DNA from: a virus
Lineage: Duplodnaviria > Heunggongvirae > Uroviricota > Caudoviricetes
IMG/VR virus record: IMGVR_UViG_2695420398_000011
Length of the DNA: 37,975 bases
Reading direction: 5' to 3' (one strand)
Shown in pieces: positions 1 through 34,978 of the stretch (positions within the stretch are counted from its first letter, which is position 1; each line of letters begins with the position of its first letter). Under the pieces are notes generated by a model that was not told the origin of the DNA, ran no database searches, and worked only from the letters and a program-made list of their open reading frames with translations. The translations under genes and the position numbers were made by a program.

Positions 1-1002
1 TTACCCTCTATTGTCAAAAGGGTTCAATTCAACTGCAGCCTCTAAATGACCTGGAGCAAAATGCGCATAACGCATAGTCATTTTTATATCGCTATGCCCC
101 AGTATTTTTTGCAACACAAGAATATTTCCTCCCCGCATCATAAAATGACTGGCAAACGTGTGACGTAGCACATGAGTTAATTGCCCATCAGGAAGCTCGA
201 TCTTCGCTCTCTTAATTGCAGCGTCAAAAGCCTCATAACATGGTGAAAATAACGCTCCTCGTTTTTTAGGAAGCATAGCCTGCAATTGAGGTGAAATCGG
301 TACAGTGCGGTTCTTCTTTCCTTTAGTTTTAACAAATGTGATTCGACCGGGCAGCACTTGAGATTGCTTTAATCCTTCAGCTTCACTCCACCGAGCACCA
401 GTCGCAAGCCCAATACGGACAACAACCCCCAAATCTTTATTCCGTGACTCATCACACGCAATCAGAAGGCGTTCAATCTCATCTACATACAGAAACGCCA
501 ATTCCTTTTCTTCCTCACGAAACTTGCGAATGCCAGTCAGGGGGTTTTCACCAGACCACTCCCCAAGGCGCTTCAGTTCGGCAAAAACAGCATGTAGATA
601 TGACTGCTCGCGATTAACGGTTGCTTCACTAAGTTTTTTCTTCCCCTTGGGATTCCATTCTCCTGATAACCTCCTTTCCCGATAAGTAGCAAACATATTT
701 TTGTCAAACTGAGAAGCAAATGGATCTCCCAGCCTGGAACAAATAGACTCAAGTTTGACTTTGCGCTCTGCACCAGAGGACAAGGTTTTACCGTACATCT
801 CAAACCAACGAGCAACCAACTCAGAAAGACGAGGACCAGAACCATCTTGAAACTCGTCTCCAACTCTACTATTCATTAAACGGCGCTCATAAGAGAGCGC
901 CTCACTTTTTGTCGCAAACTGTTTACGAATACGTTTTCCCGATGCCCCGTAAGGATAACATTCGCAAAGCCATTTACCTGATGGAATCTTACGAACCGAC
1001 AT
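1..1002 (-). CDS. int: Tyrosine recombinase / phage integrase (P2-like)
   Basis: 333-aa ORF; N-terminus (GKRIRKQF..KSEA) and C-terminal catalytic region (TGARWSEA, HVLRHTFASHF, LGHSDIKMTMRYAH) resemble P2-family integrases as recalled from memory. Confidence 0.9.
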   Translation of the reverse strand: MSVRKIPSGKWLCECYPYGASGKRIRKQFATKSEALSYERRLMNSRVGDEFQDGSGPRLSELVARWFEMYGKTLSSGAERKVKLESICSRLGDPFASQFDKNMFATYRERRLSGEWNPKGKKKLSEATVNREQSYLHAVFAELKRLGEWSGENPLTGIRKFREEEKELAFLYVDEIERLLIACDESRNKDLGVVVRIGLATGARWSEAEGLKQSQVLPGRITFVKTKGKKNRTVPISPQLQAMLPKKRGALFSPCYEAFDAAIKRAKIELPDGQLTHVLRHTFASHFMMRGGNILVLQKILGHSDIKMTMRYAHFAPGHLEAAVELNPFDNRG

Positions 1003-1007
1003 TTTAG

Positions 1008-1355
1008 TTACTTATCACATAAATCAAATGCAGCCTTAGTGACATCTCCCAGATTCTTTTTTAACCCTGGGGCGGCATCATTATCCAGCCAAAATGGATT
1101 ATTGTTATCTAACGGTAACGCACCAAATGTTTTACCTTTTATTCGAGCCAAACCTGTAAGCGCATATAACTTATTATCGTCAAAATTCATCACATAAGGA
1201 TTACCATCTAGACACTGTAACTGAACCTCATCAGTATTAAATGGCCATACCCCATTGAAACTCTCACGTTCAATATTTTTAAAAGGCATTGCGACGGCAG
1301 AAAAAGAAAACATAGATAAAAAAGTAACTAATAGTTGAACATTTTTTACTTTCAT
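1008..1355 (-). CDS. Hypothetical secreted protein (N-terminal signal peptide, two Cys)
   Basis: 115-aa ORF with hydrophobic leader LLVTFLSMFSFSAVAMP; AT-rich codon usage; tightly packed between int and the upstream ORF. Confidence 0.5.
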   Translation of the reverse strand: MKVKNVQLLVTFLSMFSFSAVAMPFKNIERESFNGVWPFNTDEVQLQCLDGNPYVMNFDDNKLYALTGLARIKGKTFGALPLDNNNPFWLDNDAAPGLKKNLGDVTKAAFDLCDK

Positions 1356-1384
1356 ACCATTACCTCAATTTAGCTCAAGTAAGA

Positions 1385-2035
1385 TTACAAATTAAAAAAC
1401 ATCCTAGAAATGGCACCACCTACCAACCCCCCTACGCAGATAAAGAATATTATTTCTTTTGGATAAAGTCGGATTAATTCTGAAGCACGAAGTCGGACTT
1501 CTGGTAAGGTCGAATTCTCTGTGTTGCTTGATACCGATTGTTGCTCTAACCACGACAATGCAGACTGCAACTGAGAACGAGTAAGATCGTTTAAACGTCC
1601 TGTACCGAAATTGATATGGCAATACCGCAGAAGTTTTTGTCGAAGTCCACAGTCTTCACTGTTACGTAGTAATAAACTTACAAGAGCCTTACAGGCATCA
1701 TGATCTTTACATCGCTCAAGCATTGCATGCAGAAAACTCTCCGCTGTTTTATATTGATTTACTGTCATATCATCAATACCAGCTACACCAATCTCCGCAT
1801 GTACTTTTTGCCAAATAATAAACGCTTCAGTATTGCTAGCTTCTGCAATAGCAGCAACCAAGCTATTTAGCTCCTTACGCTGAGCCTTAAGCAAAGGGCG
1901 ATCGTCATCATCATTATTCGAAGGGATTGCGATATTGACGGTATGAGAACCATCATATCGCCCTATCTGAATATTCTTTTCGTGAAAATCACGCCCAGCA
2001 ACGCGATTGTTTGAACCGTTTGAGTTGACGGCCAT
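1385..2035 (-). CDS. Hypothetical protein with C-terminal transmembrane anchor; N-terminal NNRVAGRDF motif shared with the repressor tail
   Basis: 216-aa ORF; C-terminal hydrophobic stretch IIFFICVGGLVGGAISRMFF; same strand as repressor and int. Confidence 0.5.
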   Translation of the reverse strand: MAVNSNGSNNRVAGRDFHEKNIQIGRYDGSHTVNIAIPSNNDDDDRPLLKAQRKELNSLVAAIAEASNTEAFIIWQKVHAEIGVAGIDDMTVNQYKTAESFLHAMLERCKDHDACKALVSLLLRNSEDCGLRQKLLRYCHINFGTGRLNDLTRSQLQSALSWLEQQSVSSNTENSTLPEVRLRASELIRLYPKEIIFFICVGGLVGGAISRMFFNL

Positions 2036-2050
2036 GTCACCTCCCTACTA

Positions 2051-2455
2051 TCACCTACCCTTAGTTTCGTTATAGTCACGCCCAGCGATACGGTTATTAC
2101 CGCCAGAAATATTTAACTCACGTCCTGATGGCTGAGTTTCCTTTTCACTGGCCGCACCTTTTAAAGCCCCGATCACCGCGTTTTTCACATCTAACGAAGC
2201 TGCTCGAAAGCGAGTAATCAACTCCTGCTCATCATCGTTATAAGTTTCAGGTGAGTGAATTCCCAACACAACATACTGAACATCAAGGCCAAAACGAGAC
2301 AGCGCTGCCAAATACGCAGCATCAGGAAAGCTATCTCCTTTCTCATATCTAAGCTGAGTTAGCTTTTTGACTCCACCAATGTCGCTCATAGCAACTTGAC
2401 TAAGTCCCAATCTTTCCCTTTCCTCACGCAACCTCTGACCAATATCATTTTTCAT
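2051..2455 (-). CDS. XRE-family helix-turn-helix transcriptional regulator; candidate immunity repressor (C/CI position)
   Basis: 134-aa ORF; N-terminal HTH (LREERERLGLSQVAMSDIGGVKKLTQLRYEKG); divergent from the early operon; followed on the same strand by int as in P2/186 lysogeny operons. Confidence 0.7.
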   Translation of the reverse strand: MKNDIGQRLREERERLGLSQVAMSDIGGVKKLTQLRYEKGDSFPDAAYLAALSRFGLDVQYVVLGIHSPETYNDDEQELITRFRAASLDVKNAVIGALKGAASEKETQPSGRELNISGGNNRIAGRDYNETKGR

Positions 2456-2530
2456 ACAAAAACCTTGACAGGTATCTTTTTTGATACCAAAATGATTTCA
2501 CGAGCTATTAGATGATCACAATATATCACT
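2456..2530. promoter_or_regulatory. Divergent lysogenic/lytic promoter-operator switch region
   Basis: 75-bp gap between divergent repressor and early operon; contains TTGACA at about 2464-2469 and AT-rich elements. Position-based inference only. Confidence 0.4.
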
Positions 2531-2737
2531 ATGAAACAAGTTCTTCACGATACCAGATCACGCATTCCGCGTAACACCGCCACAGGTCCAAGACTGGCAC
2601 TTCGGCTGTCCCTCGAGGAGCGAGCCGTCATTGATGAAATGGCAGCTAAAGAACAACGCTCATCCTCTAACATGGCGCGCATGATCTTCCTTCGCGGCCT
2701 AGAGCTAACCCAGAAAGAACAAAACAAATCTTCCTGA
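2531..2737 (+). CDS. Small ribbon-helix-helix-like regulator, first gene of early operon (Cox/Apl/Cro position)
   Basis: 68-aa ORF; predicted beta-strand followed by helices (PRLALRLSLEERAVIDEMAAKEQ) resembling Arc/CopG-type RHH proteins; position equivalent to cox/apl. Confidence 0.5.
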   Translation: MKQVLHDTRSRIPRNTATGPRLALRLSLEERAVIDEMAAKEQRSSSNMARMIFLRGLELTQKEQNKSS

Positions 2738-2753
2738 TCAGGAGGCTAATGGG

Positions 2754-2957
2754 ATGTCAGGTATAACCATCAATATCAATGTGAATGCCCCCTATGTATC
2801 CCTGCAGAAATATGCAGAGATAACAGGTATCCCTCTTAATACATGCAAAAAGATGTTGGCTGACGGTCGAATTATTATCCGACCCAAACGCGCCAAAATG
2901 GAAAAGCCTGAAGTAAACCTTGTGGCGATGTTAAAAGACGCTTTGGCTAACAGCTAA
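2754..2957 (+). CDS. Small HTH DNA-binding protein (AlpA/excisionase-like)
   Basis: 67-aa ORF with an HTH-like segment LQKYAEITGIPLNTCKKMLADGRI. Confidence 0.45.
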   Translation: MSGITININVNAPYVSLQKYAEITGIPLNTCKKMLADGRIIIRPKRAKMEKPEVNLVAMLKDALANS

Positions 2958-2978
2958 AACAATGAACAGAGCATCATC

Positions 2979-3329
2979 ATGAAAAAAAACACTAATATTC
3001 CATACTCCAAATTTCGTAATGGCGTAGAACGCCACGCTAACCGTTTCGCTATCAGTACATCACGTAGCAACACTCGCTACAGCCTGAGCGAAACACACGC
3101 TACACCTGATGGCCATCCCGTAAAACAAATTGGTGAACACACCTGGCTGATTGAGAAAGCTGGAATCGTGGTTCACAGATGCCAACGCAACCCATTTACC
3201 GGAAACCGCATTTTTGCTCTGAGCAACGGCGACAATCAGTTTGGACAGGATTTCACGTTGTACGAAGCTCTGCGCACGGTTGATCGTCTGCTGCGTGGAC
3301 AGAATTTCATTAAACAGGCTGATTTATAA
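2979..3329 (+). CDS. Hypothetical early protein
   Basis: 116-aa ORF in early operon; no recognisable domain. Confidence 0.45.
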   Translation: MKKNTNIPYSKFRNGVERHANRFAISTSRSNTRYSLSETHATPDGHPVKQIGEHTWLIEKAGIVVHRCQRNPFTGNRIFALSNGDNQFGQDFTLYEALRTVDRLLRGQNFIKQADL

Positions 3330-3339
3330 CAGGTGCTTT

Positions 3340-3618
3340 ATGACCAAAGACCATGCTCAGGGTGTATTTATCCGCTTTATTGATTTTCGCGGTGAGCTGT
3401 TGTTGCGCGCATCAGCTATTGATGGAGTGGTTCCGGTAGATAAAAGCACGGCCACTTACATTTATCTGAACGGCACACGCCTGACCGTAGAGATTCCATA
3501 TCAACCCGTATGCGAAATTATTAGCGAAGCTGAAAAAGCACGTCAGGTTAATGGCGATAAACCCTATCTCGAAATTATCTGCATGGATTCAGAAGCTGAA
3601 ATTCAGAAGGCAGATTAA
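3340..3618 (+). CDS. Hypothetical early protein
   Basis: ATG at 3340 in frame with listed ORF 3241..3618; 92 aa from this start, which avoids overlap with the upstream gene. Confidence 0.45.
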   Translation: MTKDHAQGVFIRFIDFRGELLLRASAIDGVVPVDKSTATYIYLNGTRLTVEIPYQPVCEIISEAEKARQVNGDKPYLEIICMDSEAEIQKAD

Positions 3619-3629
3619 AGGGCGTTGCG

Positions 3630-3872
3630 ATGGATAAAGAATATAAAACTCTCGTCAATAAAGCACTTGAGCGCTTTCATTTTCGCTTAAACGCATCAGG
3701 CGCTCATGCTGAACGCGCAGCCCGAGAGTCATTGACCAGAGCTATCAAGAGTATATACGACACGGCTTTTTACGTTGACGACCCGGACGCGCTCGACGAG
3801 CTTTCCGTACTCGTCTGCGCCGCAGAAAACGGGGACCATATTGAGCCATATAAACTGGGAAATATTGCATGA
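3630..3872 (+). CDS. Hypothetical early protein
   Basis: 80-aa ORF; stop overlaps the next start (ATGA). Confidence 0.45.
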   Translation: MDKEYKTLVNKALERFHFRLNASGAHAERAARESLTRAIKSIYDTAFYVDDPDALDELSVLVCAAENGDHIEPYKLGNIA

Positions 3873-3982
3873 GTATATTTATCTCATGGCTTGTTCTGAT
3901 TATTTCGGTGGCCTGCGCTATTGGGATTATGCGAATTATTAATTCAGTAAAAAAGATTGAACGCTTTTTCACTGAAGAATAA
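3869..3982 (+). CDS. Small hydrophobic membrane peptide (37 aa)
   Basis: ATG 3869 overlaps upstream stop; translation MSIFISWLVLIISVACAIGIMRIINSVKKIERFFTEE has one TM helix and a charged tail; below the ORF-track length cutoff. Confidence 0.3.
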   Translation: MSIFISWLVLIISVACAIGIMRIINSVKKIERFFTEE

Positions 3983-4068
3983 CCGCGCAAATAAGACTCC
4001 AGGTTAAATAAGAAAATGTGAAAACAATCCGCATTCGCGGAGGTATTCGCACACGCCAAGGAGGCGTA

Positions 4069-4272
4069 ATGGCAATTAAGCATTTTCCTGTCGTTCGTTT
4101 CACCTCCAGAGGACGTGAATACGAAGTTGACGAACGCCTGATTACCACAATCGACAAACACCGTTCAGAAAAGGATGCACATCACATCTATCTCACTGAC
4201 GGTACTTACTTCTGCGCCACCAACGTGGTGCAGGTGAATCTTATCAGACAGGTACAGGAGTCACGCAGATGA
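4069..4272 (+). CDS. Hypothetical early protein
   Basis: ATG 4069 preceded by AGGAGG; in frame with listed ORF 4018..4272. Confidence 0.4.
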   Translation: MAIKHFPVVRFTSRGREYEVDERLITTIDKHRSEKDAHHIYLTDGTYFCATNVVQVNLIRQVQESRR

Positions 4273-4514
4273 CCATTCTGGACTACATCGCTGCCAATCC
4301 GGGTTGTAGCGGTGGAGAAATCGCCGCAGCACTGAATACACCAACCACAACCATTAATGCGGAGCTACGCCGTCTCTGGCGCAGCGGTTCAGTCATAAGA
4401 AAAGAGCGCAAAACAGGCGGTCGCTTTTCTTATCAGGTAAACCCGATGCCGTTTGGGTGTAGCAACCCTCTAACCCAGATGTTCAACCAGCTACTGAGAG
4501 AAATCAGAGCATGA
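4269..4514 (+). CDS. Putative winged-helix DNA-binding protein
   Basis: 81-aa ORF; start overlaps upstream stop; sequence GGEIAAALNTPTTTINAELRRLWRSGSV looks like a wHTH. Confidence 0.45.
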   Translation: MTILDYIAANPGCSGGEIAAALNTPTTTINAELRRLWRSGSVIRKERKTGGRFSYQVNPMPFGCSNPLTQMFNQLLREIRA

Positions 4515-4655
4515 GCACCTCCAACTGCCGGAAACCACGTCGGGCTTCAGCAGCTCATCCGGCAGCAAAACAAACTCCGTTAATTCCTGTTCCGGGCCTT
4601 TCCTGCACCTTGCGGCAAGAGGCCTTCGCACATCTGCAACAAGAGGATTGCCGCA

Positions 4656-5021
4656 ATGATTCTCGCCGAAGACTTTTTTGATTACCTGCTGAAAACCGAG
4701 CGCGATTTTGGTATTCGCGTTCTCGACCGCTATGCAATGTATCTGAAATCACTGCCGGAACAGCAGCTCCCGGACGGCCAGATTGTTATTGACGGGCGCT
4801 ACATGGTTGGTAGCTGCCAGGAGGATTACACACTTTCCCGCATCGAAAGCGGCACGCCTTCCGTACTGGGTATTTACCTGCGAACTTCATCTCTGATTGC
4901 TGATGTAATTGCTGACAGCATTCGCATAACACACCGTTATGCCAGCACAGAGAGCACCATGCAGGAAATCCAGCGGCTGGCTACCGTCTGCCACAATGCA
5001 CTGAGCGGAAAGGCGGAGTAG
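4656..5021 (+). CDS. Hypothetical early protein
   Basis: 121-aa ORF immediately upstream of replication gene A. Confidence 0.45.
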   Translation: MILAEDFFDYLLKTERDFGIRVLDRYAMYLKSLPEQQLPDGQIVIDGRYMVGSCQEDYTLSRIESGTPSVLGIYLRTSSLIADVIADSIRITHRYASTESTMQEIQRLATVCHNALSGKAE

Positions 5022-5026
5022 TCGGC

Positions 5027-7822
5027 GTGGCAACGGAGTACATCAGAGACTGGCAACAACCACGCCATGCAGTCGGTGGCGAGGGAACGGGGGAGCCTGT
5101 CCGCCCCTCCCTTCTTTCTTCCTGGCTGGATGCCTACCGGGCAGAGAACGAGCGCCGCCAGGAAATGGCTGATGCGGCGTTCTCCGCTGCACCACTGGGC
5201 AATCTGATTAATAAAAGCCTGGACGCACAGGAAAAACAGGACAAAGCCATCACACTGGCAAGAGAAGCCAGAAAGCAGGCACGCGGTGCGGTGGATGAAG
5301 CCATGGCCTCGCTGCGTCTGCTGCCGTCCTATCTGCGTGATCCGCTTATCCGCCATCTCTCTTTCCTGCACAAAAAACAGGAATCTGGCCACCAGAAAGG
5401 CAAAAAGAACCAGCAGGCGGAACGCTATGCGAGCGGAACCCTGCGCAAAATATTCGAACGTCTGGCCCGCACCGACCGTCGCTGGCTGACTCCGGGTTAT
5501 CGCTCCCTTGCCGGACGTGAACGTCTGGACGATTTGCTGTACCTGCCACAGCTCAACAAGCACCAGATACAGACGCTGGCCGTCATGACGGCGGCAATGT
5601 TCAGCAGCACCTTCGAAAAACTCTGCGATGGCTGTGGCGCGACCGACGGCGAGCTGACCATGGATATAACGCTGAAGGCGTATCAGATGCTGGCCCGCAT
5701 GGCGTTACATCTGCACACAGTGCCGCCGCATTATGACGCACTGACAACAGACAAAGACCGGAAGAACGAACCGGACACGGAACTGCTGCCGGGTGCAATC
5801 CTCCGCCTGACCTGTGCGGACTGGTGGAAACGCAAACTGTGGCTTTTACGTTGCGAATGGAGAGAGGAACAACTCCGCGCTGCCTGTCTAGTTTCCAGAA
5901 AAACATCACCCTATCTGAGTCAGGACGCATTAAGTGAATTTCGCGCACAGCGCGAGAAAACACGCGATTTCCTGAAAAGTTTCATGCTGGAAAATGAAGA
6001 CGGGTTCACGATTGATCTCGAGACAGTGTATTACGCGGGAGTAAGTAACCCGGTCCACCGTAAGGCAGAAATGATGGCCACCATGAAGGGACTGGAACTT
6101 CTGGCCGAAGCCCGTGGCGACAGAGCGGTGTTTCTGACTGTCACCTGCCCGTCAAAATACCACGCTACAACAGAGAACGGTCATCCGAATCCCAAATGGA
6201 ACGGCGCCACCATGCGCGATTCCAGTGATTACCTGGTTAACACTTTTTTTAAGGCGGTCCGCAAAAAACTGAATCGCGACGGCCTGCGCTGGTATGGCAT
6301 CCGCACGGTGGAGCCACACCATGACGGCACCGTGCACTGGCACATGATGGTCTTTGCACATCCTGAAGAAATCGACAGCATCGTGGACATCACCCGTGAT
6401 ATTGCCATTCGCGAAGACCGCCACGAGCTGGGCAATGACATAACTCCGCGCTTTAAGGCAGAGTACGTCGACGGTTCGAAAGGTACGCCGACCAGCTACA
6501 TCGCCACCTACATCGGAAAGAACCTGGACAGCCGCGCCGTGGATGGCATTGACCCGAAAACAGGCAAGCCACGCGTTGATCACGAAACCGGAAAATCAAT
6601 GGCCGAGAGCGTGGAACGCGCCATCGGCTGGGCGCGCCTTCACCGCGTCCGCCAGTTCCAGTTCTTTGGTATCCCCTCCCGTCAGGTATGGCGTGAACTC
6701 CGCCGCCTTGCCAGTCAGATGGCCCGCAACCCGGAAGGTCCACAACGTCTGGAAAATGACGCAATGGATGCGGTACTCGCTGCCGCTGATGCCGGGTGTT
6801 TTGCCACCTACATTGAGAAACAGGGTGGCGTACTTGTTCCACGCAAGGATTACCTGATTCGCACCGCCTACGACCTCGCAGAAGAGCTGAACGATTACGG
6901 CGAGCAAAGCGTACAGATTTACGGGATCTGGTCGCCACAAATCGGGGAATCTTCCCGCGTGTGCACGCACCCGGATAACTGGAAGCTGGTAAGACGTAAA
7001 CCGGAAGCGGAAGACAGCGCCCGCGAAAATGGTTTTGACCTTCAGGGCGGCCCTGCCGCCCCTTGGACTCGTGGCAATAACTGTCCCCGTGTACAGGAAA
7101 CGGACAACAACGGGACAGAACAGCCGGAAGAACGGCCATCACCGTGGCCGCAGCTTCCTGACGGCGTTGACGTGAATGAATGGATGCGCTCACTGAAACT
7201 GCACGAACGCCGGGCGCTGATGCGTTCGCTGCGTGACAAACAGGCAAAAAACAGCAGTGATGAAATGCAGAACTGGACACAGAGCCGCAAACAGCCACGG
7301 CCTTTGCCTGATAACCACGAGTTACTCGCTAAAGAATGGCGGGAGTCTGCTGAATCTCTCGGCCTGCATATCGGTGAACAGCAGATGCAGCACCTGTTAC
7401 GGGGCGGCAGTCTGTACGTTGACGGCAGCATCATTGCACCGCAGGGATTTGAAATTGTACGCAAACCGGATACCCGCCCGGACAGCCGAATCACGCAGCT
7501 CTGGCAGCGCCTGAGCCGCAATCACGGCGTAAGCAGCACGGAGATCCGCCATAACCCGGTCGCCAGCTATCTGGAACAGCTGGGGGCATCAGACCCCGAA
7601 GCCGCCGCACGCCTGGCATCCACACTTCAGCAGGACCAGAACACCATGAAAACCCCCGTTACCGTGCTTTCTGACATGCTGCGCGCCATCCGTGACGCAG
7701 AGCACGCACAGAGAATCAGTGAAACCACTGAACGCGCCCACCGCAAAGCAGACCTGCTGCGGGGGCCTGACCAGTGGAAACAAAAAACAGACAGAAACGG
7801 GATTCACAAATCCCGTAAATGA
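5027..7822 (+). CDS. A: Rolling-circle replication initiation endonuclease (P2 gpA-like, HUH superfamily)
   Basis: 931-aa ORF with probable GTG start; HUH motif HWHMMVFAH; position at end of early operon as in P2/186. Confidence 0.85.
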   Translation: MATEYIRDWQQPRHAVGGEGTGEPVRPSLLSSWLDAYRAENERRQEMADAAFSAAPLGNLINKSLDAQEKQDKAITLAREARKQARGAVDEAMASLRLLPSYLRDPLIRHLSFLHKKQESGHQKGKKNQQAERYASGTLRKIFERLARTDRRWLTPGYRSLAGRERLDDLLYLPQLNKHQIQTLAVMTAAMFSSTFEKLCDGCGATDGELTMDITLKAYQMLARMALHLHTVPPHYDALTTDKDRKNEPDTELLPGAILRLTCADWWKRKLWLLRCEWREEQLRAACLVSRKTSPYLSQDALSEFRAQREKTRDFLKSFMLENEDGFTIDLETVYYAGVSNPVHRKAEMMATMKGLELLAEARGDRAVFLTVTCPSKYHATTENGHPNPKWNGATMRDSSDYLVNTFFKAVRKKLNRDGLRWYGIRTVEPHHDGTVHWHMMVFAHPEEIDSIVDITRDIAIREDRHELGNDITPRFKAEYVDGSKGTPTSYIATYIGKNLDSRAVDGIDPKTGKPRVDHETGKSMAESVERAIGWARLHRVRQFQFFGIPSRQVWRELRRLASQMARNPEGPQRLENDAMDAVLAAADAGCFATYIEKQGGVLVPRKDYLIRTAYDLAEELNDYGEQSVQIYGIWSPQIGESSRVCTHPDNWKLVRRKPEAEDSARENGFDLQGGPAAPWTRGNNCPRVQETDNNGTEQPEERPSPWPQLPDGVDVNEWMRSLKLHERRALMRSLRDKQAKNSSDEMQNWTQSRKQPRPLPDNHELLAKEWRESAESLGLHIGEQQMQHLLRGGSLYVDGSIIAPQGFEIVRKPDTRPDSRITQLWQRLSRNHGVSSTEIRHNPVASYLEQLGASDPEAAARLASTLQQDQNTMKTPVTVLSDMLRAIRDAEHAQRISETTERAHRKADLLRGPDQWKQKTDRNGIHKSRK

Positions 7823-7923
7823 GCAAAAAACGTGCCGCGATATATGAAGCGCGCACAAAACAGGCAAAAGCGGGATTTAAAAATCCTGTAACCGATTAAT
7901 TAATCAACATAAGGAAAAGCGAC

Positions 7924-8883
7924 ATGAAAATTTGTATCGACGACGGCTCCACCAATATCAAGCTGGCATGGACTGAGAACGGCGAACGCCGCAACGCTAT
8001 CAGCCCGAACAGCTTCAAGTCGGAATGGTCTGCGCCGTTCGGTGGCACGCAGCCCGCGAACTACATGCTTGATGGCGTGCGCTATGGTTTTGATCCGGTC
8101 AGCGATCGCTTTGTCCAGACGACCGACACGCAATACCAGTACAGCGATGTGAATGTCATTGCCATTCATCACGCGCTGGTCAAATCAGGCATCACACCAC
8201 AGGAGGTGGATGTGGTTGTCACCCTGCCACTGAGCGAGTATTTCGACACAAACGCACAGCCGGACATGGCCAACATCAACCGCAAAAAAGCGAACGTTAT
8301 GCGCCCGGTGGAGTACCAGAACGGCAAAGCATTCACTATCCGTAACGTACGGGTTATGCCTGAATCTATTCCGGCTGGCTTTAAAGCACTGGCTGACATG
8401 AGTCCGTTTGAATCCCTGCTGATTGTGGATTTAGGCGGAACCACGCTGGATGTAGCAAAGGTTCAGGGACAACTGGCAGGTATCAGCCAGGTGTTTTGCG
8501 ATCCACACGTAGGCGTTTCCCTGATGGCCGATGCAGTACTGTCGGTGATGGCCACTAACGGTATGCGTACCAGTCACCACATCGCCAATACCATTATCGA
8601 ACATCGCCATGATGAAGCCTGGCTGCGCCAGCACATCCATAATGACGCGCATTACGCCAGCCTGATGGCGGTTATTCGTGAAAAGGAAGAAACACTGAAA
8701 CAACGCGTGATCCGCGCACTGGCGGGTTTTTCGGGTTACGGGCGGGTGATGGTTGTCGGTGGCGGGGCGGAGATTGTGGCACCCGCTATCCGCGAAGCCT
8801 GCGGAGTTAATGCGACTTTCATCGCGGACGGGGGGCCACAGTTTGCTCTGGTTAATGGGCTGTACGCAATGGACAAGGAGTAA
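7924..8883 (+). CDS. parM: Actin-like segregation ATPase ParM (StbA family)
   Basis: 319-aa ORF; N-terminus MKICIDDGSTNIKLAW..ISPNSFK..YSDVNVIAIHHAL closely matches plasmid R1 ParM as recalled (MLVFIDDGSTNIKLQW..). Confidence 0.9.
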   Translation: MKICIDDGSTNIKLAWTENGERRNAISPNSFKSEWSAPFGGTQPANYMLDGVRYGFDPVSDRFVQTTDTQYQYSDVNVIAIHHALVKSGITPQEVDVVVTLPLSEYFDTNAQPDMANINRKKANVMRPVEYQNGKAFTIRNVRVMPESIPAGFKALADMSPFESLLIVDLGGTTLDVAKVQGQLAGISQVFCDPHVGVSLMADAVLSVMATNGMRTSHHIANTIIEHRHDEAWLRQHIHNDAHYASLMAVIREKEETLKQRVIRALAGFSGYGRVMVVGGGAEIVAPAIREACGVNATFIADGGPQFALVNGLYAMDKE

Positions 8884-8887
8884 ACCA

Positions 8888-9199
8888 ATGACGACTCCAA
8901 CCAGACGGATAAGTTTCTATCTGAAGCCCGCCGCCGTCAAGAACGAAGGAGAAGCATGCGCCTGGCTGGACAGCCTTACACCAGAAGCCCGCAAAAGCGG
9001 CCAACGCGTGGCTTTTCTGGCCGGGCTGGCACTTCTGAAAATGAATCCGGCAGAGGCTTACCGACTAGCTGCATGGGCTGATGATGAAGCGTTATCAGTG
9101 ACACAAACCAGGACAGAACGCCCCGCATCACAGCCAGTATCAACCGCACAGATAACCAGTCAGATGGCCGGAAATATCCGGGCGTTATTTCCTGAATAA
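8888..9199 (+). CDS. parR: ParR-like centromere-binding adaptor (StbB family)
   Basis: ATG 8888 just after parM stop; ISFYLKPAAV..CAWLDSLTPEARKSGQRVAFLAGLALL and C-terminal IRALFPE parallel R1 ParR (IAFKLNPDVN..TLDSIP..AALTAGLAL..LRSLFPKE). Confidence 0.8.
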   Translation: MTTPTRRISFYLKPAAVKNEGEACAWLDSLTPEARKSGQRVAFLAGLALLKMNPAEAYRLAAWADDEALSVTQTRTERPASQPVSTAQITSQMAGNIRALFPE

Positions 9200-9262
9200 C
9201 ACAACATCAGGGCGAGTTCGCCCTGCTCTCCACCTCAGAACATAAACAAGGAGAACGACTTA

Positions 9263-9646
9263 ATGAGCGAAATCAACTATCAGGCATTACGTGAACGTTA
9301 TTCACCTGTGCCAGTACCGAAATGCCCTATTTGCGGCGAGGAAATGTCAATTCAGCGAATATCTGGAGCACAGGTTGTTTATGCCTGCTCCGGTTATGGT
9401 GATGATGGAGATTTCAAAATTGGTCGAACTCTTGCCGACGAACATTATGAAAAATCACGCGTAACAGTGTTGGATGTCGGGGATCCTGAAGTATTGGCGC
9501 TACTTGATTGGCTGGAAACCAAAGACAACCGAATCGCTGAACTGGAAAAAATCGCCACTGACTATGCACTTAAATTCCAGAAAGCACAGGACGCATTAAA
9601 GTACGCCGCTTTGCTGCATAGCAGGACAGCGCAGCTACAAGACTAA
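9263..9646 (+). CDS. Hypothetical zinc-ribbon / coiled-coil protein
   Basis: 127-aa ORF; CPICG...YACSGYG cysteine cluster then a helical C-terminus. Confidence 0.5.
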   Translation: MSEINYQALRERYSPVPVPKCPICGEEMSIQRISGAQVVYACSGYGDDGDFKIGRTLADEHYEKSRVTVLDVGDPEVLALLDWLETKDNRIAELEKIATDYALKFQKAQDALKYAALLHSRTAQLQD

Positions 9647-9736
9647 CTTAAAGCGGAAGATTAATACATGGTGAGTCAGGGTAATTTGTTTTTATCCCGA
9701 CAAATAAACAAAAAAGTGGACTATCTCTGTAGTATC

Positions 9737-10267
9737 TTATTCAGCATCGTCTCGTGCAGTCTGTGCATACGTCACAACAACGCCCAATGCATTAGTTTTC
9801 TTTTCAACATAGATAATATTGTCATATTCATAGTTACCATACGGATAGCAAATAAGAATATTTTTATGCAGATCGGGATCATCAACAAACGCTCCGGAAC
9901 AGCTTCTTGAACTACCGGATGTATACTCATACGGTGCAACATATGATGATGTTACTCCTGGTAAAAAATAAGTCACCATCATAAGAGGGATAATCAGGAA
10001 TATCCCTGTAAGAATGCAAGAGCCAGCATAAACCTTCAGGTATTCCGACAGTCCTTTCCAGCCACTTTGCTTCACTACCCCCCTCTTCACCAGAAACAAG
10101 GAGAAGAAAAAGGACATACCCATACTACACAAGATGTAATAATTGGATATACGCGAATTAAGATATGTAATCCTGTAGATATCTGCCCTCCACCAGTAAA
10201 AGAGGAAAATAATCCCTAGCACTGAAACAGTCATGCAAATCAAATAAGGATATGAATCTTTCTTCAT
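9737..10267 (-). CDS. Hypothetical integral membrane protein (AT-rich cargo gene)
   Basis: 176-aa ORF with about three predicted TM helices and a Tyr/Ser-rich C-terminal domain; strongly AT-rich relative to flanking phage genes. Confidence 0.5.
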   Translation of the reverse strand: MKKDSYPYLICMTVSVLGIIFLFYWWRADIYRITYLNSRISNYYILCSMGMSFFFSLFLVKRGVVKQSGWKGLSEYLKVYAGSCILTGIFLIIPLMMVTYFLPGVTSSYVAPYEYTSGSSRSCSGAFVDDPDLHKNILICYPYGNYEYDNIIYVEKKTNALGVVVTYAQTARDDAE

Positions 10268-10745
10268 GTCTTGCGCTCATTAAAATTTCCCTGCTACGAA
10301 CAAATTTACCATCCGTTTTTTGCGCAGAAAACAGCACGATGCACACTGCACGATAGTGCACAAATTTGCACAATTTTTTTGAACGACTTTTTACCCTTCC
10401 GGCCCGCATGGCGGCTGGATCCGTCAAGGATCCGTGCGTGCACAAAAAAACGCGTTTTTTCTGCGCGTAGGTGACGGGGGAACAGCCCGCGTTTCAGGGG
10501 GTAAATAGCATTCCCTGAACGATGTCGCAGAGACACAACAGAATGGCTGTATTTCTCACGCTGAGCGTGAAAAATACGTGAGGGATTCTGATTTGATGGG
10601 GTGAAAGGTAAGGCCGTCAAAATCGCACTGAGGCGGCAAAGAACATGCAGTCAACGCGGTGGGATTGCGTAAGAGTCTGACCGCCGATGATGGCAATAAG
10701 CAGAAAAGCGTCGTGAAATTATCTGATTGATACAGGAGCTGGAGA

Positions 10746-10774
10746 GCCGGGGCATAAATTTTTTATGCCCCGGC
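10746..10774 (-). terminator. Perfect 13-bp-stem hairpin immediately downstream of portal gene Q
   Basis: GCCGGGGCATAAA-ttt-TTTATGCCCCGGC palindrome; candidate terminator of the leftward P-Q operon, though the T-run lies inside the loop rather than 3' of the stem. Confidence 0.35.
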
Positions 10775-10798
10775 GAAGCAGCAGACAAGCGAAGCGCG

Positions 10799-11845
10799 TC
10801 AGGATGTGGGCTGGGTATCTAACAGTGCGTAAGGGTTAAAGCGGATCACCTCTTCGCCAAGCCAGTCATTGATGTGCTTCATGGCCTCCATGACGGGCAT
10901 CAGCTCGTTAATTGCGTAAACCCGCGCGGCCTTCTCCACATCACCAAACGCACTTTTTTCACCCGGCATCGCCCCCATCAGTTGCGGCGGAACGCGGTGC
11001 GCAGCCAGCACATCATCACGGGATGCCGCCTTAACATTCATGAACTCATCCTTTGCGGTGATCTGCTGGAACGGCAAAATTTGCACCCCCTCTTTGCCCC
11101 CGTTGGGCGCATGAATGAGCACGTTTTTAAACGCACCGCCACCACGTGCACCCTGTAGCGTTTCTTTCAGGGAGTCCATGCTTTCGCGGTTTACCTGCGC
11201 TGCACCGATGTAGATGATGCACCCGGCGTGGGATCCGTTGTCGTAATACAGTTTTCTGAACATGTCCGCCGAATGAGACAGGCTGGCCGAGAGTAATGCG
11301 CCGAGATATTCCGGCATGCCGTAGATTTCCTGGTTAATGTCAGGATTCATCAGGTGGCACACTTTGCCAGGGCGAAACTGGAACGCATCCTTGCCATCCT
11401 GCACATACCACCATGATTCAAGATCGCTACCGCGTCGCATGTATTTCGCCAGGGCGTGCCGTAATTTAAGCGGTTCGCCGAGCATATTGCTTCGAAGCTC
11501 AAGGAATGCGTTACCGAACACAAACCAGTCCAGCGCCAGCGCCGAGAAATCCTGCCGGGAAAGCAGCGGGTGCGGGATGTAGCAACCGAGTAATACATTG
11601 CGCTTAAAGTAAAGCGCAGACTGATGCCAGGACGTTTGCCGGGCAGCTCTTGCCAGACCGTACCAGTCCACCGGGGTTTCATACCACCGCCCGTTATCAG
11701 CACAGTACATATTGTCCAGCAGGTCATGCCCGGTCAGGCGATAAGGACCATCAAATGTGAATGCACTGAGCGACGATTCTTTCCTGAGCGCATCAGCGAG
11801 ATCAATGCGTGAACTCATGCGCACTTTTTTATTTTTTCTGCTCAT
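10799..11845 (-). CDS. Q: Portal protein (P2 gpQ-like)
   Basis: 348-aa ORF; size, position and orientation (divergent from capsid operon, next to terminase) match P2 Q. Confidence 0.85.
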   Translation of the reverse strand: MSRKNKKVRMSSRIDLADALRKESSLSAFTFDGPYRLTGHDLLDNMYCADNGRWYETPVDWYGLARAARQTSWHQSALYFKRNVLLGCYIPHPLLSRQDFSALALDWFVFGNAFLELRSNMLGEPLKLRHALAKYMRRGSDLESWWYVQDGKDAFQFRPGKVCHLMNPDINQEIYGMPEYLGALLSASLSHSADMFRKLYYDNGSHAGCIIYIGAAQVNRESMDSLKETLQGARGGGAFKNVLIHAPNGGKEGVQILPFQQITAKDEFMNVKAASRDDVLAAHRVPPQLMGAMPGEKSAFGDVEKAARVYAINELMPVMEAMKHINDWLGEEVIRFNPYALLDTQPTS

Positions 11846-25364: not shown

Positions 25365-25970
25365 CTATTTATACAATACAACACCACTCTTTTTAGTTAT
25401 ATATGTGCAGTTTGATGGTATATCTTTATTTATAAAAGACATTGCACCTATTTTTACATTATCCCCAATTTTACGTGACAATCCAATGATGCAACAATTA
25501 GCTCCGATATCAACGTTACTACCAATTTTCACTCTTGAACCAGGCATGTCACCATCTATCTGTCCAATGGTAGTATTCTGTCGTAATACCAGATTTTCAC
25601 CCGCATCAACAGCAAAATGAACAACAATTCCAGCATGATGGGGAATTGTTAACCCTTTTCCAATATTTGCTCCCAATCCTATTTCACAACCAAATTTGTT
25701 AATTATTTTACTGTTTAACTTTTTGGCTGCTTTCTTATGTAATTTATTACCATTAATATACATTTCGTTAGCCAACCGCCACCAGAAAAGGAAATTCCGG
25801 TTACGCTGCTTTTTCTCTCTTAAAAGCCTCCAGATATCCATACGTTTCCGCCGAATTACTTCATGTTTCCAGAAGTTTTTTAAATTAGTAGAGTTCCCAA
25901 ATAAAACAAAGTGAATTGCCATTAAGTAAGACAGCACGAAAATCTCCTTAATTATTATTTCAGACCACAC
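25365..25970 (-). CDS. Hexapeptide-repeat acyltransferase (serine O-acetyltransferase / CysE-WcaB-like)
   Basis: 201-aa ORF; left-handed beta-helix repeats (IGLGANIGKG..IGSNVDIGANCCIIG..IGDNVKIGAMSFI); strongly AT-rich; at the position of P2 Z/fun. Confidence 0.7.
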   Translation of the reverse strand: MWSEIIIKEIFVLSYLMAIHFVLFGNSTNLKNFWKHEVIRRKRMDIWRLLREKKQRNRNFLFWWRLANEMYINGNKLHKKAAKKLNSKIINKFGCEIGLGANIGKGLTIPHHAGIVVHFAVDAGENLVLRQNTTIGQIDGDMPGSRVKIGSNVDIGANCCIIGLSRKIGDNVKIGAMSFINKDIPSNCTYITKKSGVVLYK

Positions 25971-31669: not shown

Positions 31670-31826
31670 AGCTTCAGCCCCTTGTATCCGTTAAATGATT
31701 CGGCAACAATCATCACCCACCACGCGCGTAATCTCACCCCTGCGCCGTTCTCCCGATTCGGCGACAACAAAAAGCAGTAACCCCTTCCGCACGCACATGC
31801 GACCATGCCGCACAGGGAGGGAACAG

Positions 31827-32936
31827 ATGACTGATACCACCATGCAATTGCTCAGTCAGGGCACAGACCCCGTGAAAATGCCGGATTTTGATATTCTCGC
31901 GGAGGGTAAAACGCTGTCCGGCGTGGCAGAGCGCCTGATGAACCTGTCACTGACCGACAACCGGGGATTTGAAGCAGACCAGCTCACCATCACGCTGGAT
32001 GATGCGGATGGTCAGTTGCAGCTACCGCCACGGGGCGCGCGCCTGACGGTTCTCATTGGCTGGAAAGGAGAACCGCTGACAGAAAAAGGCACTTACATCG
32101 TTGATGAAATCGCTCACGAGGGACCGCCGGACAGACTGACTGTTTCAGCCAGAAGCGCAGATTTTCGGGATGAATTTAACGTTAAACGTGAGGTGTCATG
32201 GCATGATGTGACCGTTGAGCGTGTGGTATCCGCCATCGCTCATCGGTACGGCCTGAAACCGCAAATCAGCGAAATGCTGATGGATATCGAAATCGACCAC
32301 GCCGACCAGACCGAAGAAAGCGACATGTCCTTCCTTACGCGCATGGCGGAAATGCTGGGCGCAATCACCACAGTAAAAAGCGGTAATCTGTTATTCATCA
32401 TGCCAGGCGGTGGCGTGAACGCACAGGGCCAGCCGTTGCCATCGTTCGCCATCACTCGCAGCAGTGGCGATCGCCATCAGTTCCGCATTGCTGACCGCGA
32501 AGCGTATACGGGGGTACGCGCTTACTGGCTTGATCTTAATTACGGGAAAAAGAAAAAAGTCAGCGTGAAACGCCGCAAACCGAAAAAAGAGAAAAGCAGC
32601 AGCCGTGAAGGTGACTATATGGAAGGTTCGGAAGGCAACGTGTTTGTGTTACGCAAAACTTATCAGAACGAACAGGCAGCAAGACGCGCAGCGGCGGCAA
32701 AGTGGCAGCAGCTACAACGCAGAGCCGCATCATTCTCCATCACACTGGCACGTGGACGCGCAGAACTCTACCCCGAAATGCATGGCACGGTGACAGGCTT
32801 CAAAAGTGACATCGACAATCAGGACTGGATTATTGCAAAAGCCGAGCACACCATTGATAACAGCGGCTTTACCACGCAGCTTGAGCTTGAGGCAAAAATC
32901 CCAGAGTGGATAGCAGAAACAGAGCGAGCAACATAG
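31827..32936 (+). CDS. D: Tail protein D / late control protein D (P2 gpD-like)
   Basis: ATG 31827 preceded by GGGAGGG; 369 aa with a Lys-rich central linker; plus strand, divergent from the FI-U block. Confidence 0.8.
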   Translation: MTDTTMQLLSQGTDPVKMPDFDILAEGKTLSGVAERLMNLSLTDNRGFEADQLTITLDDADGQLQLPPRGARLTVLIGWKGEPLTEKGTYIVDEIAHEGPPDRLTVSARSADFRDEFNVKREVSWHDVTVERVVSAIAHRYGLKPQISEMLMDIEIDHADQTEESDMSFLTRMAEMLGAITTVKSGNLLFIMPGGGVNAQGQPLPSFAITRSSGDRHQFRIADREAYTGVRAYWLDLNYGKKKKVSVKRRKPKKEKSSSREGDYMEGSEGNVFVLRKTYQNEQAARRAAAAKWQQLQRRAASFSITLARGRAELYPEMHGTVTGFKSDIDNQDWIIAKAEHTIDNSGFTTQLELEAKIPEWIAETERAT

Positions 32937-33041: not shown

Positions 33042-33509
33042 TTATTGTTTAATGGCGTTTTCTATCCATGTCGCCAAATTGTTCTTGATATCGCTATAAG
33101 CGTCGTTAAAGTTAGGTTCATATACGAGTGGTTTAATTACTCGATCGCCTCGCTTAAATGTAAATTGGTCGAAAGGATTCGGTCCTTTTGTCCCATAGCC
33201 GTTACGAGGGCATTTCAGTCGATGAATATAAATACCCACCACAGCCTTACCCTCTTTCCAGGCTCTTTCGATCTCATACTTGACCCATGGGCGATTAGCC
33301 GTTTGACTCCCGATCAGTACTACTAAGCAGGATTTGCCATTTAAGCTCTGATTAATCCAATTCTTCACGCCCTGCTCAGTTCGTTTAATTTGTTCCCAAG
33401 TATTTGGGCTAACCGGTTCATCCCCCTCCAGCACTCCCATGTTACGAATCTGCTGTACCCGCATAACATCGTTATCAAAGTGAAAGCTGTAAAATACCTT
33501 ACGTTTCAT
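33042..33509 (-). CDS. thsB: Thoeris ThsB (TIR-like domain protein)
   Basis: 155 aa; KVFYSFHFDND...CLVVLIGSQTANRPWVKYEIERA...GKAVVGIYIH...KGPNPFD parallels Bacillus ThsB (RVFFSFHYQD..CVLIGSQTFNRRWVRYEI..KGPNPFD) as recalled. Confidence 0.85.
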   Translation of the reverse strand: MKRKVFYSFHFDNDVMRVQQIRNMGVLEGDEPVSPNTWEQIKRTEQGVKNWINQSLNGKSCLVVLIGSQTANRPWVKYEIERAWKEGKAVVGIYIHRLKCPRNGYGTKGPNPFDQFTFKRGDRVIKPLVYEPNFNDAYSDIKNNLATWIENAIKQ

Positions 33510-33511
33510 AT

Positions 33512-34978
33512 CTAACCTCCTAGTTTCTTTAAAATTTCTAAAACTTTCATTTCGATATTTGCCCGATTAGCAGAGAGATCTGCAAGCTGAGCAACTTCCT
33601 TTTCCAACCAAGGGTACCGGACAAAATGTTTACTTGGATCCGTCAGCATCTCGTCAGCTAGTTCCTTGGCCATATAACCAGTGACGCCAAGTGGAAGCAC
33701 GACAACCCCTGTTTCCTGAGCAATTTGAAACTCCCTTCGGACCCCATCAGCATTAACGATTCGACCATCATGGAGTTTATTCCCAAAAAGGAATATAGCG
33801 ATTCCAGAAAGACCAATCATACGCTGCCGATATTCGTCCCATAGCTCGCTCAGGGCTTTATCGTTTGATGAGTGTTGAGGGAATGGCCGCATGATAAGTT
33901 GCTCTTCTGAGTACTTATCAGGCTTAGAATAAATGGCTTCAAGAGCTCCGTTGATGACCGCACTACCAATACCCCATCCAAACCCATTGACAACTCGATA
34001 GCCATTCTTCACCAAAGATGACGAAAGTATGTGTACAAAGTTTAGTGCTTCCTGTTTGTCCCAAGCGCCATACTCTTCTGCACTACCAGATATAAATATG
34101 GTCTTCTTGAGGAAGCGACTCTCAATCTCTTTCAATATAAGTGGAATATCATCGTACTCGTTTACTAATACAGCCTGAATGCCAAAACGGAGCAAATCGC
34201 GAATATGATGTTCTTGCCTACGCTGCCTATACATAGCGCCAGCTTCATCTTCATTTCCTTGCGGCAGAGAGGGTTCCTTACGAAGAAAGCAGTAGTGTCT
34301 ACGACGATGCTTCTCCGGAACATGCAATCGGCTCAATATGTAATCAAGATTAGGATCAGTAAAACTGAAGCCAATAAATAAGAATGTCTTAGAAATCAAA
34401 TCTCCACTCAATGCTGTAACAAACCCCTCATGGGTCTTGTAGTACTGCTCATACTGAGCTTTATAAAGTATGGCGTCACCTGGCGAGCTAACATCACCAT
34501 GCATTTTGTAAACAACAGCATCTCGTTTAGGACGAGTGGAAATAAGATCATCGGTTCTGCGTTTAATATCTGCGACACGGTAGTTTTCTTTGAGACTATC
34601 TTCAATCAAAGTGTCATAGTTGGTTGTCCAATAAGTTCTAATGGGTAGTCTAGCAAGGATTTTATGGGCTTCGGAAGGTTCCGCTTGCTCCGAGAATTCC
34701 TCTAGGATTTTTCTAGCTAAACCAGTTGAGCTGTTGTTCTTGTTGACATGGTATTGTGCAACCGAAATTAAGTCGTGCTCTAGCTCAACAGAAAGGCCTA
34801 ATTCTTCAGCAATTTCACGCAGCAGTTCACTCCAATTAACGAAGCCGCTGGTTCTAGATAGGCCCGCACCAGCAAAAACGGCGGCAACCCCTTCTTCGAG
34901 ATCCTTCACATAAGTCCTGATAAAAGCTTCAACTTCAGCCGAAAACTGAACACTCATATTTTTAGACAATCCGGTCAA
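33512..34978 (-). CDS. thsA: Thoeris ThsA (N-terminal SIR2 domain, C-terminal SLOG domain)
   Basis: 488 aa; SIR2 hallmarks FAGAGLS, TTNYD, MHGD; C-terminal FISGSAEEYG...GFGWGIGSAVINGALE typical of SLOG; directly upstream of thsB on the same strand; AT-rich. Confidence 0.85.
   Translation of the reverse strand: MTGLSKNMSVQFSAEVEAFIRTYVKDLEEGVAAVFAGAGLSRTSGFVNWSELLREIAEELGLSVELEHDLISVAQYHVNKNNSSTGLARKILEEFSEQAEPSEAHKILARLPIRTYWTTNYDTLIEDSLKENYRVADIKRRTDDLISTRPKRDAVVYKMHGDVSSPGDAILYKAQYEQYYKTHEGFVTALSGDLISKTFLFIGFSFTDPNLDYILSRLHVPEKHRRRHYCFLRKEPSLPQGNEDEAGAMYRQRRQEHHIRDLLRFGIQAVLVNEYDDIPLILKEIESRFLKKTIFISGSAEEYGAWDKQEALNFVHILSSSLVKNGYRVVNGFGWGIGSAVINGALEAIYSKPDKYSEEQLIMRPFPQHSSNDKALSELWDEYRQRMIGLSGIAIFLFGNKLHDGRIVNADGVRREFQIAQETGVVVLPLGVTGYMAKELADEMLTDPSKHFVRYPWLEKEVAQLADLSANRANIEMKVLEILKKLGG

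Follow-up and report, generated by a model that had tools for sequence, protein, structure and literature searches.

Positions 9263-10267 of the prophage sequence IMGVR_UViG_2695420398_000011 (37,975 nucleotides (nt) at full length; hereafter, the window) hold an intact gene for a predicted inner-membrane protein and, convergent with it, the stump of a second gene. The two open reading frames (ORFs) lie where the first-pass annotation placed them, at 9263-9646 on the plus strand (127 amino acids (aa)) and at 9737-10267 on the minus strand (176 aa). Both are judged to be real coding sequence because the first matches the Ead_Ea22 family, while the second has 61 homologous clusters and is found on at least 1000 contigs. 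When set against sibling prophages, the two prove to be neighbors by accident and not a system: (i) the 176-aa ORF is the single gene of an AT-rich cassette that was acquired at a known cargo site of P2-like phages, and (ii) the 127-aa ORF is what the cassette left of an Ead/Ea22-like gene. The membrane protein may act as an envelope-level superinfection-exclusion protein, a reading to which a probability of about 0.4 is given.

At the flanks of the site, identity to phage P88 and other Xuanwuvirus members is 94-98%, and on this basis the window is classed as a P88-like prophage (Xuanwuvirus, Peduoviridae) of the P2 family.

The cassette and the gene it cut short

The cassette spans 9634-10345 (712 bp) and replaces 258 bp of the sibling prophage in Escherichia coli SCU-124 (locus L010). 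BLAST aligns the window and this sibling at 98.3% identity over 7800-9633 and resumes at 96.6% identity from 10346. The displaced 258 bp consist of the 3' third of a 196-aa Ead/Ea22-like gene, full-length in the sibling and at the same place, together with the hairpin downstream of it. The right edge of the variable segment is constant at 10344-10346 in comparisons with P88, Citrobacter phage Shae_phiSM and SCU-124; the left edge varies, falling at 9251 (P88), 9202 (Shae_phiSM) or 9633 (SCU-124).

The base composition of the cassette is 38.6% GC. As the first-pass annotation had noted, the membrane gene is more AT-rich than the phage backbone, with 38.8% GC (40% at third codon positions, GC3) compared to 54-57% GC (GC3 of about 62%) for the genes of gpA, ParM, the portal and the terminase. 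The 127-aa ORF is likewise low (45.8% GC, GC3 40%), and other low-GC stretches occur in the window, with a minimum of 34% near 25.5 kb. A moron is an autonomous extra gene in a phage genome, a definition that is reportedly that of Juhala et al. 2000; the membrane gene has the deviant composition of a moron and is inserted between genes that are adjacent in the three relatives compared.

The 127-aa ORF (9263-9646, plus strand) matches Pfam Ead_Ea22 (PF13935; E 2.7e-29, 102.9 bits with a cut-off of 27), its residues 2-117 aligning to profile positions 1-111 of 139. Ea22 proteins are built of an N-terminal segment, a coiled coil and a variable C-terminal domain (PMC10834534). Similarly to lambda Ea22 and other PF13935 proteins, the window ORF has the N-terminal CxxC...C segment and coiled coil; it differs from lambda Ea22 in having no C-terminal domain at all and in residing in a P2-like phage, whereas lambda Ea22 is encoded in the lambdoid exo-xis region. 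The window protein and its 196-aa sibling are identical to about residue 123, after which the window reads LQD-stop, four codons past the cassette junction, and the sibling runs 73 residues further. In E. coli strain H3, where the DNA is 99.9% identical, the NCBI annotation pipeline (PGAP) marks the same ORF as 'incomplete, missing C-terminus', i.e., a pseudogene. By these comparisons, the 127-aa ORF is a remnant of the 196-aa gene cut short by the cassette, and is not an intact small protein. Of its earlier description as a cysteine-cluster or zinc-ribbon protein with a coiled coil, the coiled coil and a cluster of three cysteines (C21, C24 and C41) hold, while the zinc-ribbon Pfam models all score under their cut-offs (E 0.008-0.06).

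The first-pass annotation had taken the two ORFs as a convergent pair. That a zinc-ribbon/coiled-coil protein and a membrane protein form a two-gene functional unit is very improbable indeed, although the ORFs are adjacent, both have a GC3 of about 40% and the exact arrangement is kept in 62-77 genomes. The left joint lies inside the Ead/Ea22-like gene, whose 3' end the cassette destroyed at a cost of 73 codons and with the pseudogene call noted above. Each gene also occurs alone, Ead/Ea22 without the membrane gene in SCU-124, and the membrane gene without Ead/Ea22 in lambdoid and Salmonella prophages. Moreover, convergent genes cannot share a transcript.

In P2-like phages, the interval between gpA and gpQ, beside cos, is a diversity hotspot with anti-phage systems (Rousset et al. 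2022, PMC9122126), and the cargo tables of the same study list StbA and Plasmid_stab_B with Ead_Ea22, Fic, DUF4760 and others. The site described here lies between gpA (5027-7822) and the portal gene (10799-11845), and the cargo between parR and 10346 differs among P88, Shae_phiSM, SCU-124 and other near relatives. The old/tin locus of P2 (Rousset et al. 2022) shares the cos-adjacent position between gpA and the portal gene, as well as variable cargo of atypical composition. By contrast, Old (an ATPase-nuclease) and Tin are soluble and dissimilar in sequence to the window cargo, and the slot of P88-like phages additionally holds parMR. The memP gene of Shae_phiSM, an occupant of the same slot, was considered as a relative and rejected, as it is not homologous to the membrane protein gene. 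The base-level cassette edges, the hotspot site and a presence in only 62-77 of about 1258 E. coli genomes that match part of the region bear out the earlier proposal that the membrane gene was acquired horizontally as variable cargo. Its homologues are not core components of P2-like phages; the gene is instead a recurrent tenant of the slot.

At the fixed right edge of the cargo site are three TTGTGCA-type direct repeats, phased every 10 nt (10347-10373, minus strand), which are unique in the window. The repeats are present in P88, Shae_phiSM and SCU-124 irrespective of cargo, as well as inside the lambdoid module of phage 434 and in Salmonella and Enterobacter P2-like prophages (positions in compared records include L003 ~3672-3729, L004 ~3742-3807, L010 3193-3251 and, for phage 434, L001 4864-4929). 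They may bind a protein or serve as a joint for recombination. A weak hairpin and T-run on the plus strand at 10356-10380 (-8.5 kcal/mol, z -1.8) overlaps the repeats and could end the early operon.

Taken together, the comparisons show that an AT-rich single-gene cassette recombined into the gpA-cos-gpQ hotspot. Its right joint is at or within the short TTGTGCA-repeat sequence common to P2-like backbones and the relatives of the cassette, and its left joint is within the Ead/Ea22-like gene, with loss of the C-terminal domain.

The membrane protein, its promoter and its spread

The membrane protein (9737-10267, minus strand) belongs to a small family. A word-indexed search returns the 61 homologous clusters, and all that are named to an organism are of Enterobacteriaceae (Escherichia, Shigella, Salmonella and Enterobacter); the contig count given above is for the exact sequence. 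A profile search of 1.8 billion representative proteins gives 59 matches, most of about 170 aa and aligned over the whole profile. Two long repeat proteins that match the family profile (P0102 and P0117) have adhesin or PKD-type repeats and are set aside as chance beta-strand similarity. The protein matches PHROG 1416 (E 1.6e-45) over residues 90-175, a profile of 90 positions to which no function is assigned and which covers the C-terminal half only, because many annotations start at an internal methionine. Pfam, NCBIfam and PADLOC searches with the membrane protein and ten distant relatives yield nothing above noise. PADLOC-DB v2 gives no family at E up to 0.1 for either ORF, ParM or ParR, Foldseek finds no match among viral models at E up to 0.001, and a PDB sequence-profile search with the membrane protein returns noise. 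The family is uncharacterised and without curated annotation.

Hydropathy and AlphaFold2 agree on the three membrane helices of the first-pass annotation, and the C-terminal domain is Tyr/Ser-rich as described there (75 aa with 9 Tyr and 7 Ser). The AlphaFold2 model, built from a 15-sequence alignment, places helices at residues 5-30, 38-61 and 69-101, followed by five strands (mean predicted local distance difference test score (pLDDT) 76); the C-terminal 79 residues modelled alone reach a pLDDT of 86.6. Among the folds closest to the predicted beta-barrel are membrane-anchored small beta-barrels, namely, the DUF1093 YxeF-like proteins (PDB 3npp and 2k5q) and DUF2500 YhhM (3q6c), and likewise cold-shock/OB folds. 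In all 30 family members compared, Lys and Arg are more numerous in the N-terminus and loop 2 taken together than in loop 1 (the positive-inside rule). Exactly two cysteines occur in the C-terminal domain of 28 of 30 relatives, with C123 and C140 at least 90% conserved, and all comparisons show stronger conservation of the domain than of the membrane part. Based on the Lys/Arg distribution and the paired conserved cysteines, the protein is predicted to be N-in, C-out, with a disulfide bond in its periplasmic domain.

A predicted sigma-70 promoter of the membrane gene lies at 10303-10331 (minus strand). Its parts are a -35 element TTTTCT (10331-10326), a 17-nt spacer and an extended -10 element TGgTAAATT (TG at 10311-10310, hexamer at 10308-10303), with a predicted transcript start near 10296; the -35 and -10 elements both reside inside the cassette. 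Upstream regions were aligned from seven contexts (the window, phage 434, three Salmonella loci, Enterobacter and a decayed E. coli prophage), and the TG.TAA.TT of the -10 and the TTTT of the -35 are invariant in all seven. This conservation points to an extended -10 sigma-70 promoter.

The 176-aa form is probably the true protein, and the 200-aa annotation over-extended. The 24-residue N-terminal extension of the lambdoid copies was rejected as coding, since it has no counterpart in the Salmonella and Enterobacter homologues; it also overlaps the conserved -10 element, and in the window it is not in frame with the gene. In more distant homologues, the protein begins with MKK or MKN. The PGAP label 'frameshifted' on the H3 copy arises because the extension is out of frame in the window-type allele, and the window gene is probably intact despite this flag. 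Models of 200 aa are noted in E. coli H3 (L011, 3038-3613) and in lambdoid copies (e.g., L013, 7091-7693). Upstream of lambdoid copies, a 56-aa 'putative membrane protein' is annotated in phage 434 (L001, 4755-4925) and mEp332 (L002, 1632-1802). This ORF overlaps DNA homologous to non-coding P2-like backbone, has no NCBIfam match and is probably not a gene.

The membrane gene is widespread. Of 5426 complete E. coli genomes, at least 1000 (at least 18%) carry it, including O157:H7 and O104:H4 strains, and in 920 of these the best copy is at 60-80% DNA identity. About 1258 of the genomes match part of window positions 9200-10500, mostly only the backbone at about 10346-10500; the whole arrangement of Ead stump and membrane gene is found in 62, and the cassette at 99% identity or more in 77. 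Three loci with copies of 60-80% identity were inspected, and all are lambdoid or decayed prophages. Two of these (from an O157:H7 strain and strain 600468) are lambdoid prophages at ybhC, with the gene between xis and a TraR-like gene and opposite the exo-bet strand, while the third is a decayed prophage adjoining torI and dsdC. Phages 434, mEp332 and 2B8 encode a copy 79.5% identical in protein sequence, which in 434 and mEp332 is flanked by xis and exo and encoded on the other strand from the pL operon. A tblastn search of the phage collection returns five lambdoid records only. The Hex protein of phage 434 was considered as the lambdoid homologue and rejected, since hex lies in the immunity region, overlapping the repressor gene.

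In Salmonella, Enterobacter and metagenomic P2-like prophages that have a different gpA and different neighbors, the portal-proximal slot holds homologues with 55-66% protein identity, so that at least four other kinds of P2-like context are represented. The orientation of the P2-like copies is constant, co-directional with the portal gene and convergent with gpA, and among the genes called after the portal gene, on the cos side of the slot, the copy always ranks first to third. No partner gene recurs from one context to another. In Salmonella loci L005, L008, L009 and L016 (~5227-5888), two small ORFs (81 and 119 aa) reside between the portal gene and the membrane-gene homologue; at the same position, L017 has ORFs of 123 and 119 aa, L007 and L018 have one each and L006 has neither. 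None of these small ORFs is found in the Enterobacter, metagenomic or window loci. A distant relative, P0064 (metagenome contigs L024 and L025; neighboring genes at 1-5510 and 6688-7539), is encoded beside two STAND-like proteins of very large size with DUF4062 and AAA/TPR domains and, in one contig, also beside an Apyc1-like protein of the metallo-beta-lactamase fold, in what looks like a defence-island neighborhood.

The DNA that travels with the gene bears on the direction of movement between the two phage groups. The phage 434 module matches window segment 9649-10404 at 76% identity and keeps about 60 nt of P2-like backbone homology past the cassette edge, including the TTGTGCA repeats, with weaker matches towards cos; overall, some 60 to 150 nt of P2-type cos-proximal backbone remain with the lambdoid copies. 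The same backbone segment is present in P88-like phages without the membrane gene. The retention of this backbone in the 434 module, and its presence in phages that lack the gene, suggests that the lambdoid copies came from the P2-like hotspot; it also suggests that the right joint of the window was formed by recombination within shared backbone sequence.

Possible roles at the cell envelope

A role in superinfection exclusion is proposed from the hotspot site, the mobility of a lone gene, its own promoter-like element, the predicted topology, the conserved C-terminal domain and the retention of the gene in decayed prophages. If functional, the promoter-like element of the cassette would allow transcription in the lysogen independent of the lytic promoters. 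The product would be a 176-aa inner-membrane protein with its N-terminus and lysine-rich loop 2 in the cytoplasm and, exposed to the periplasm, a conserved OB-like beta-barrel of about 75 aa that is probably disulfide-bonded. The target of this domain would be a conserved component on the periplasmic side of the inner membrane, either a host entry factor or the tip of the DNA-delivery conduit of an incoming phage, and genome entry would be blocked without killing of the cell. Of eight randomly chosen loci of unknown function from the analogous hotspot of P4, six protected against phages (bioRxiv 10.64898/2026.02.27.708500). This base rate raises the prior for defence, though it is measured on P4 and not on P2.

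The closest likeness in mode of action is to P22 SieA, an inner-membrane protein of 162-164 aa with three helices and its own promoter that blocks DNA injection (PMC10883804). Similarly to SieA, the window protein would be a prophage-expressed, single-gene inner-membrane protein of similar size (176 aa predicted) with three predicted helices, encoded on the strand opposite the neighboring genes. By contrast, there is no detectable homology (hhalign probability 0.2% with family alignment A2), and the FxRYPxEAxxFNK motif, predicted to be cytoplasmic in SieA, is not seen on reading the window translation. The conserved part of the window protein is instead the predicted periplasmic beta-barrel, and SieA is encoded between genes 16 and 9 of P22-like phages and not in the P2 hotspot. 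Thus, an identity with SieA is ruled out by the absent homology, and the membrane protein would be at most SieA-like in action.

Other features also suit a protein that kills the infected cell, in which the three helices would permeabilise or depolarise the inner membrane on sensing infection, before phage release. The locus is the right one for such an abortive-infection effector, and when a hotspot system includes a transmembrane protein, it is usually interpreted as a suicide effector (Rousset et al. 2022, PMC9122126). This role is nonetheless quite improbable, as no sensor partner is conserved beside the gene in any context, the cytoplasmic part (loop 2, of about 18 aa) is too small for sensing and the conserved part of the protein is predicted to face the periplasm.

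Several observations weigh against superinfection exclusion. PADLOC, Pfam, NCBIfam and hhalign (the last against P22 SieA) detect no similarity to known exclusion or defence proteins, and a literature search found no published work on the family. A generic consensus scan does not call the promoter, which is a weak match (7 of 12 positions plus the TG), the E. coli alleles have a poor Shine-Dalgarno sequence and no clear terminator lies 3' of the gene, where the fold z-score of -1.0 is no better than that of shuffled sequence. Some distant relatives reside in ordinary chromosomal contexts, e.g., beside a sucrose operon. Finally, a strongly conserved periplasmic domain is unlike the expectation for an arms race; it points to a conserved host partner and would fit a role outside defence as well.

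Such a role would be that of a lysogenic-conversion or host-fitness factor that alters envelope physiology, for example, through toxin or colicin immunity, stress tolerance or modulation of a membrane complex. The lom and bor morons of lambda set a precedent, as they are expressed in the lysogen and affect the envelope but are not antiviral. The suggestion of a conserved host partner, the relatives on chromosomes outside prophages, and the high prevalence of the gene with its persistence in decayed prophages are all consistent with this role. By contrast, colicin-immunity and other Pfam matches are absent, the gene is repeatedly placed in a P2 defence hotspot and one distant relative lies beside STAND-like DUF4062-TPR genes. 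A non-defence function is regarded as unlikely, yet credible.

Superinfection exclusion, in turn, can be extended to the family as a whole. In this wider proposal, which is possible if doubtful, proteins with three helices and a periplasmic barrel would be unrecognised and very common genome-entry blockers of P2-like and lambdoid prophages (including the ybhC prophage of O157:H7). They would occupy a conserved host component that several temperate phages need for DNA delivery across the inner membrane, and the lambdoid copies would have been captured from the P2-like hotspot.

Flanking genes and other cargo of the prophage

The genes around the site are those of a P2-type backbone with a partition module. 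The replication gene A (gpA; 5027-7822) matches Phage_GPA at E 3.9e-129. It is followed by parM (7924-8883, plus strand), which encodes an actin-like segregation ATPase (Pfam StbA_N, E 3.8e-82; ParM C-terminal domain, E 2.5e-68); parM is about 96-98% identical in DNA to P88-like relatives and belongs to the backbone, outside the cassette. A ParR-type partition protein (Plasmid_stab_B, PF10784, E 4.1e-24 over residues 51-121 of a 148-aa ORF) is placed at 8888-9199 (plus strand). The mechanically called 148-aa ORF, which begins at 8753, is probably an overlong call; the protein annotated at the corresponding place in relatives has 103 aa. To the right of the hotspot, the portal protein gpQ (10799-11845, minus strand) is assigned by PF04860 (E 4.4e-18) and by the portal annotation of relatives, and the Pfam scan places the large terminase gene downstream of the site as well. 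Between the cargo site and the portal gene, 10346-10798 is conserved non-coding backbone (95.9-96.6% identity to P88-like relatives), which is expected to hold cos because Rousset et al. 2022 put cos in the gpA-gpQ interval. A 19-mer taken as the P2 cos sequence has no match in the window at three or fewer mismatches.

Elsewhere, a type I Thoeris system lies at 33042-34978 (minus strand), just after the gpD gene (31695-32936). It consists of ThsB (TIR, 155 aa, 33042-33509, minus strand; PF08937, E 1e-23) and ThsA (SIR2 plus SLOG/STALD, 488 aa, 33512-34978, minus strand; E 9.3e-78). Thus, the prophage carries a recognised defence system at another cargo position. The stretch of lowest GC in the window coincides with a 201-aa ORF (25365-25970, minus strand) just after the tail-fibre assembly gene. 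The ORF has a sub-threshold match to hexapeptide transferases (E 3.8e-05, 23.6 bits with a cut-off of 27) and may be another moron, perhaps an acetyltransferase. Among the compared records, that of phage 434 (OL657227; L001, 124-2283) has, next to attP, an IS fragment and genes for type III effectors (NleC-like and NleH-like) in the annotation of its depositor, all unrelated to the cassette.

The type of locus is already known, and the window adds a concrete example of how fast cassette swapping leaves gene remnants in P2 hotspots; what had been taken for a pair is one intact cargo gene and the stump of another. The lead that emerges is a common, unannotated family that moves between two unrelated groups of temperate phages with its own promoter-like element. 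If the membrane protein does block phage entry, this would bear on the prediction of host range and on the choice of therapy phages for many E. coli and Salmonella strains.

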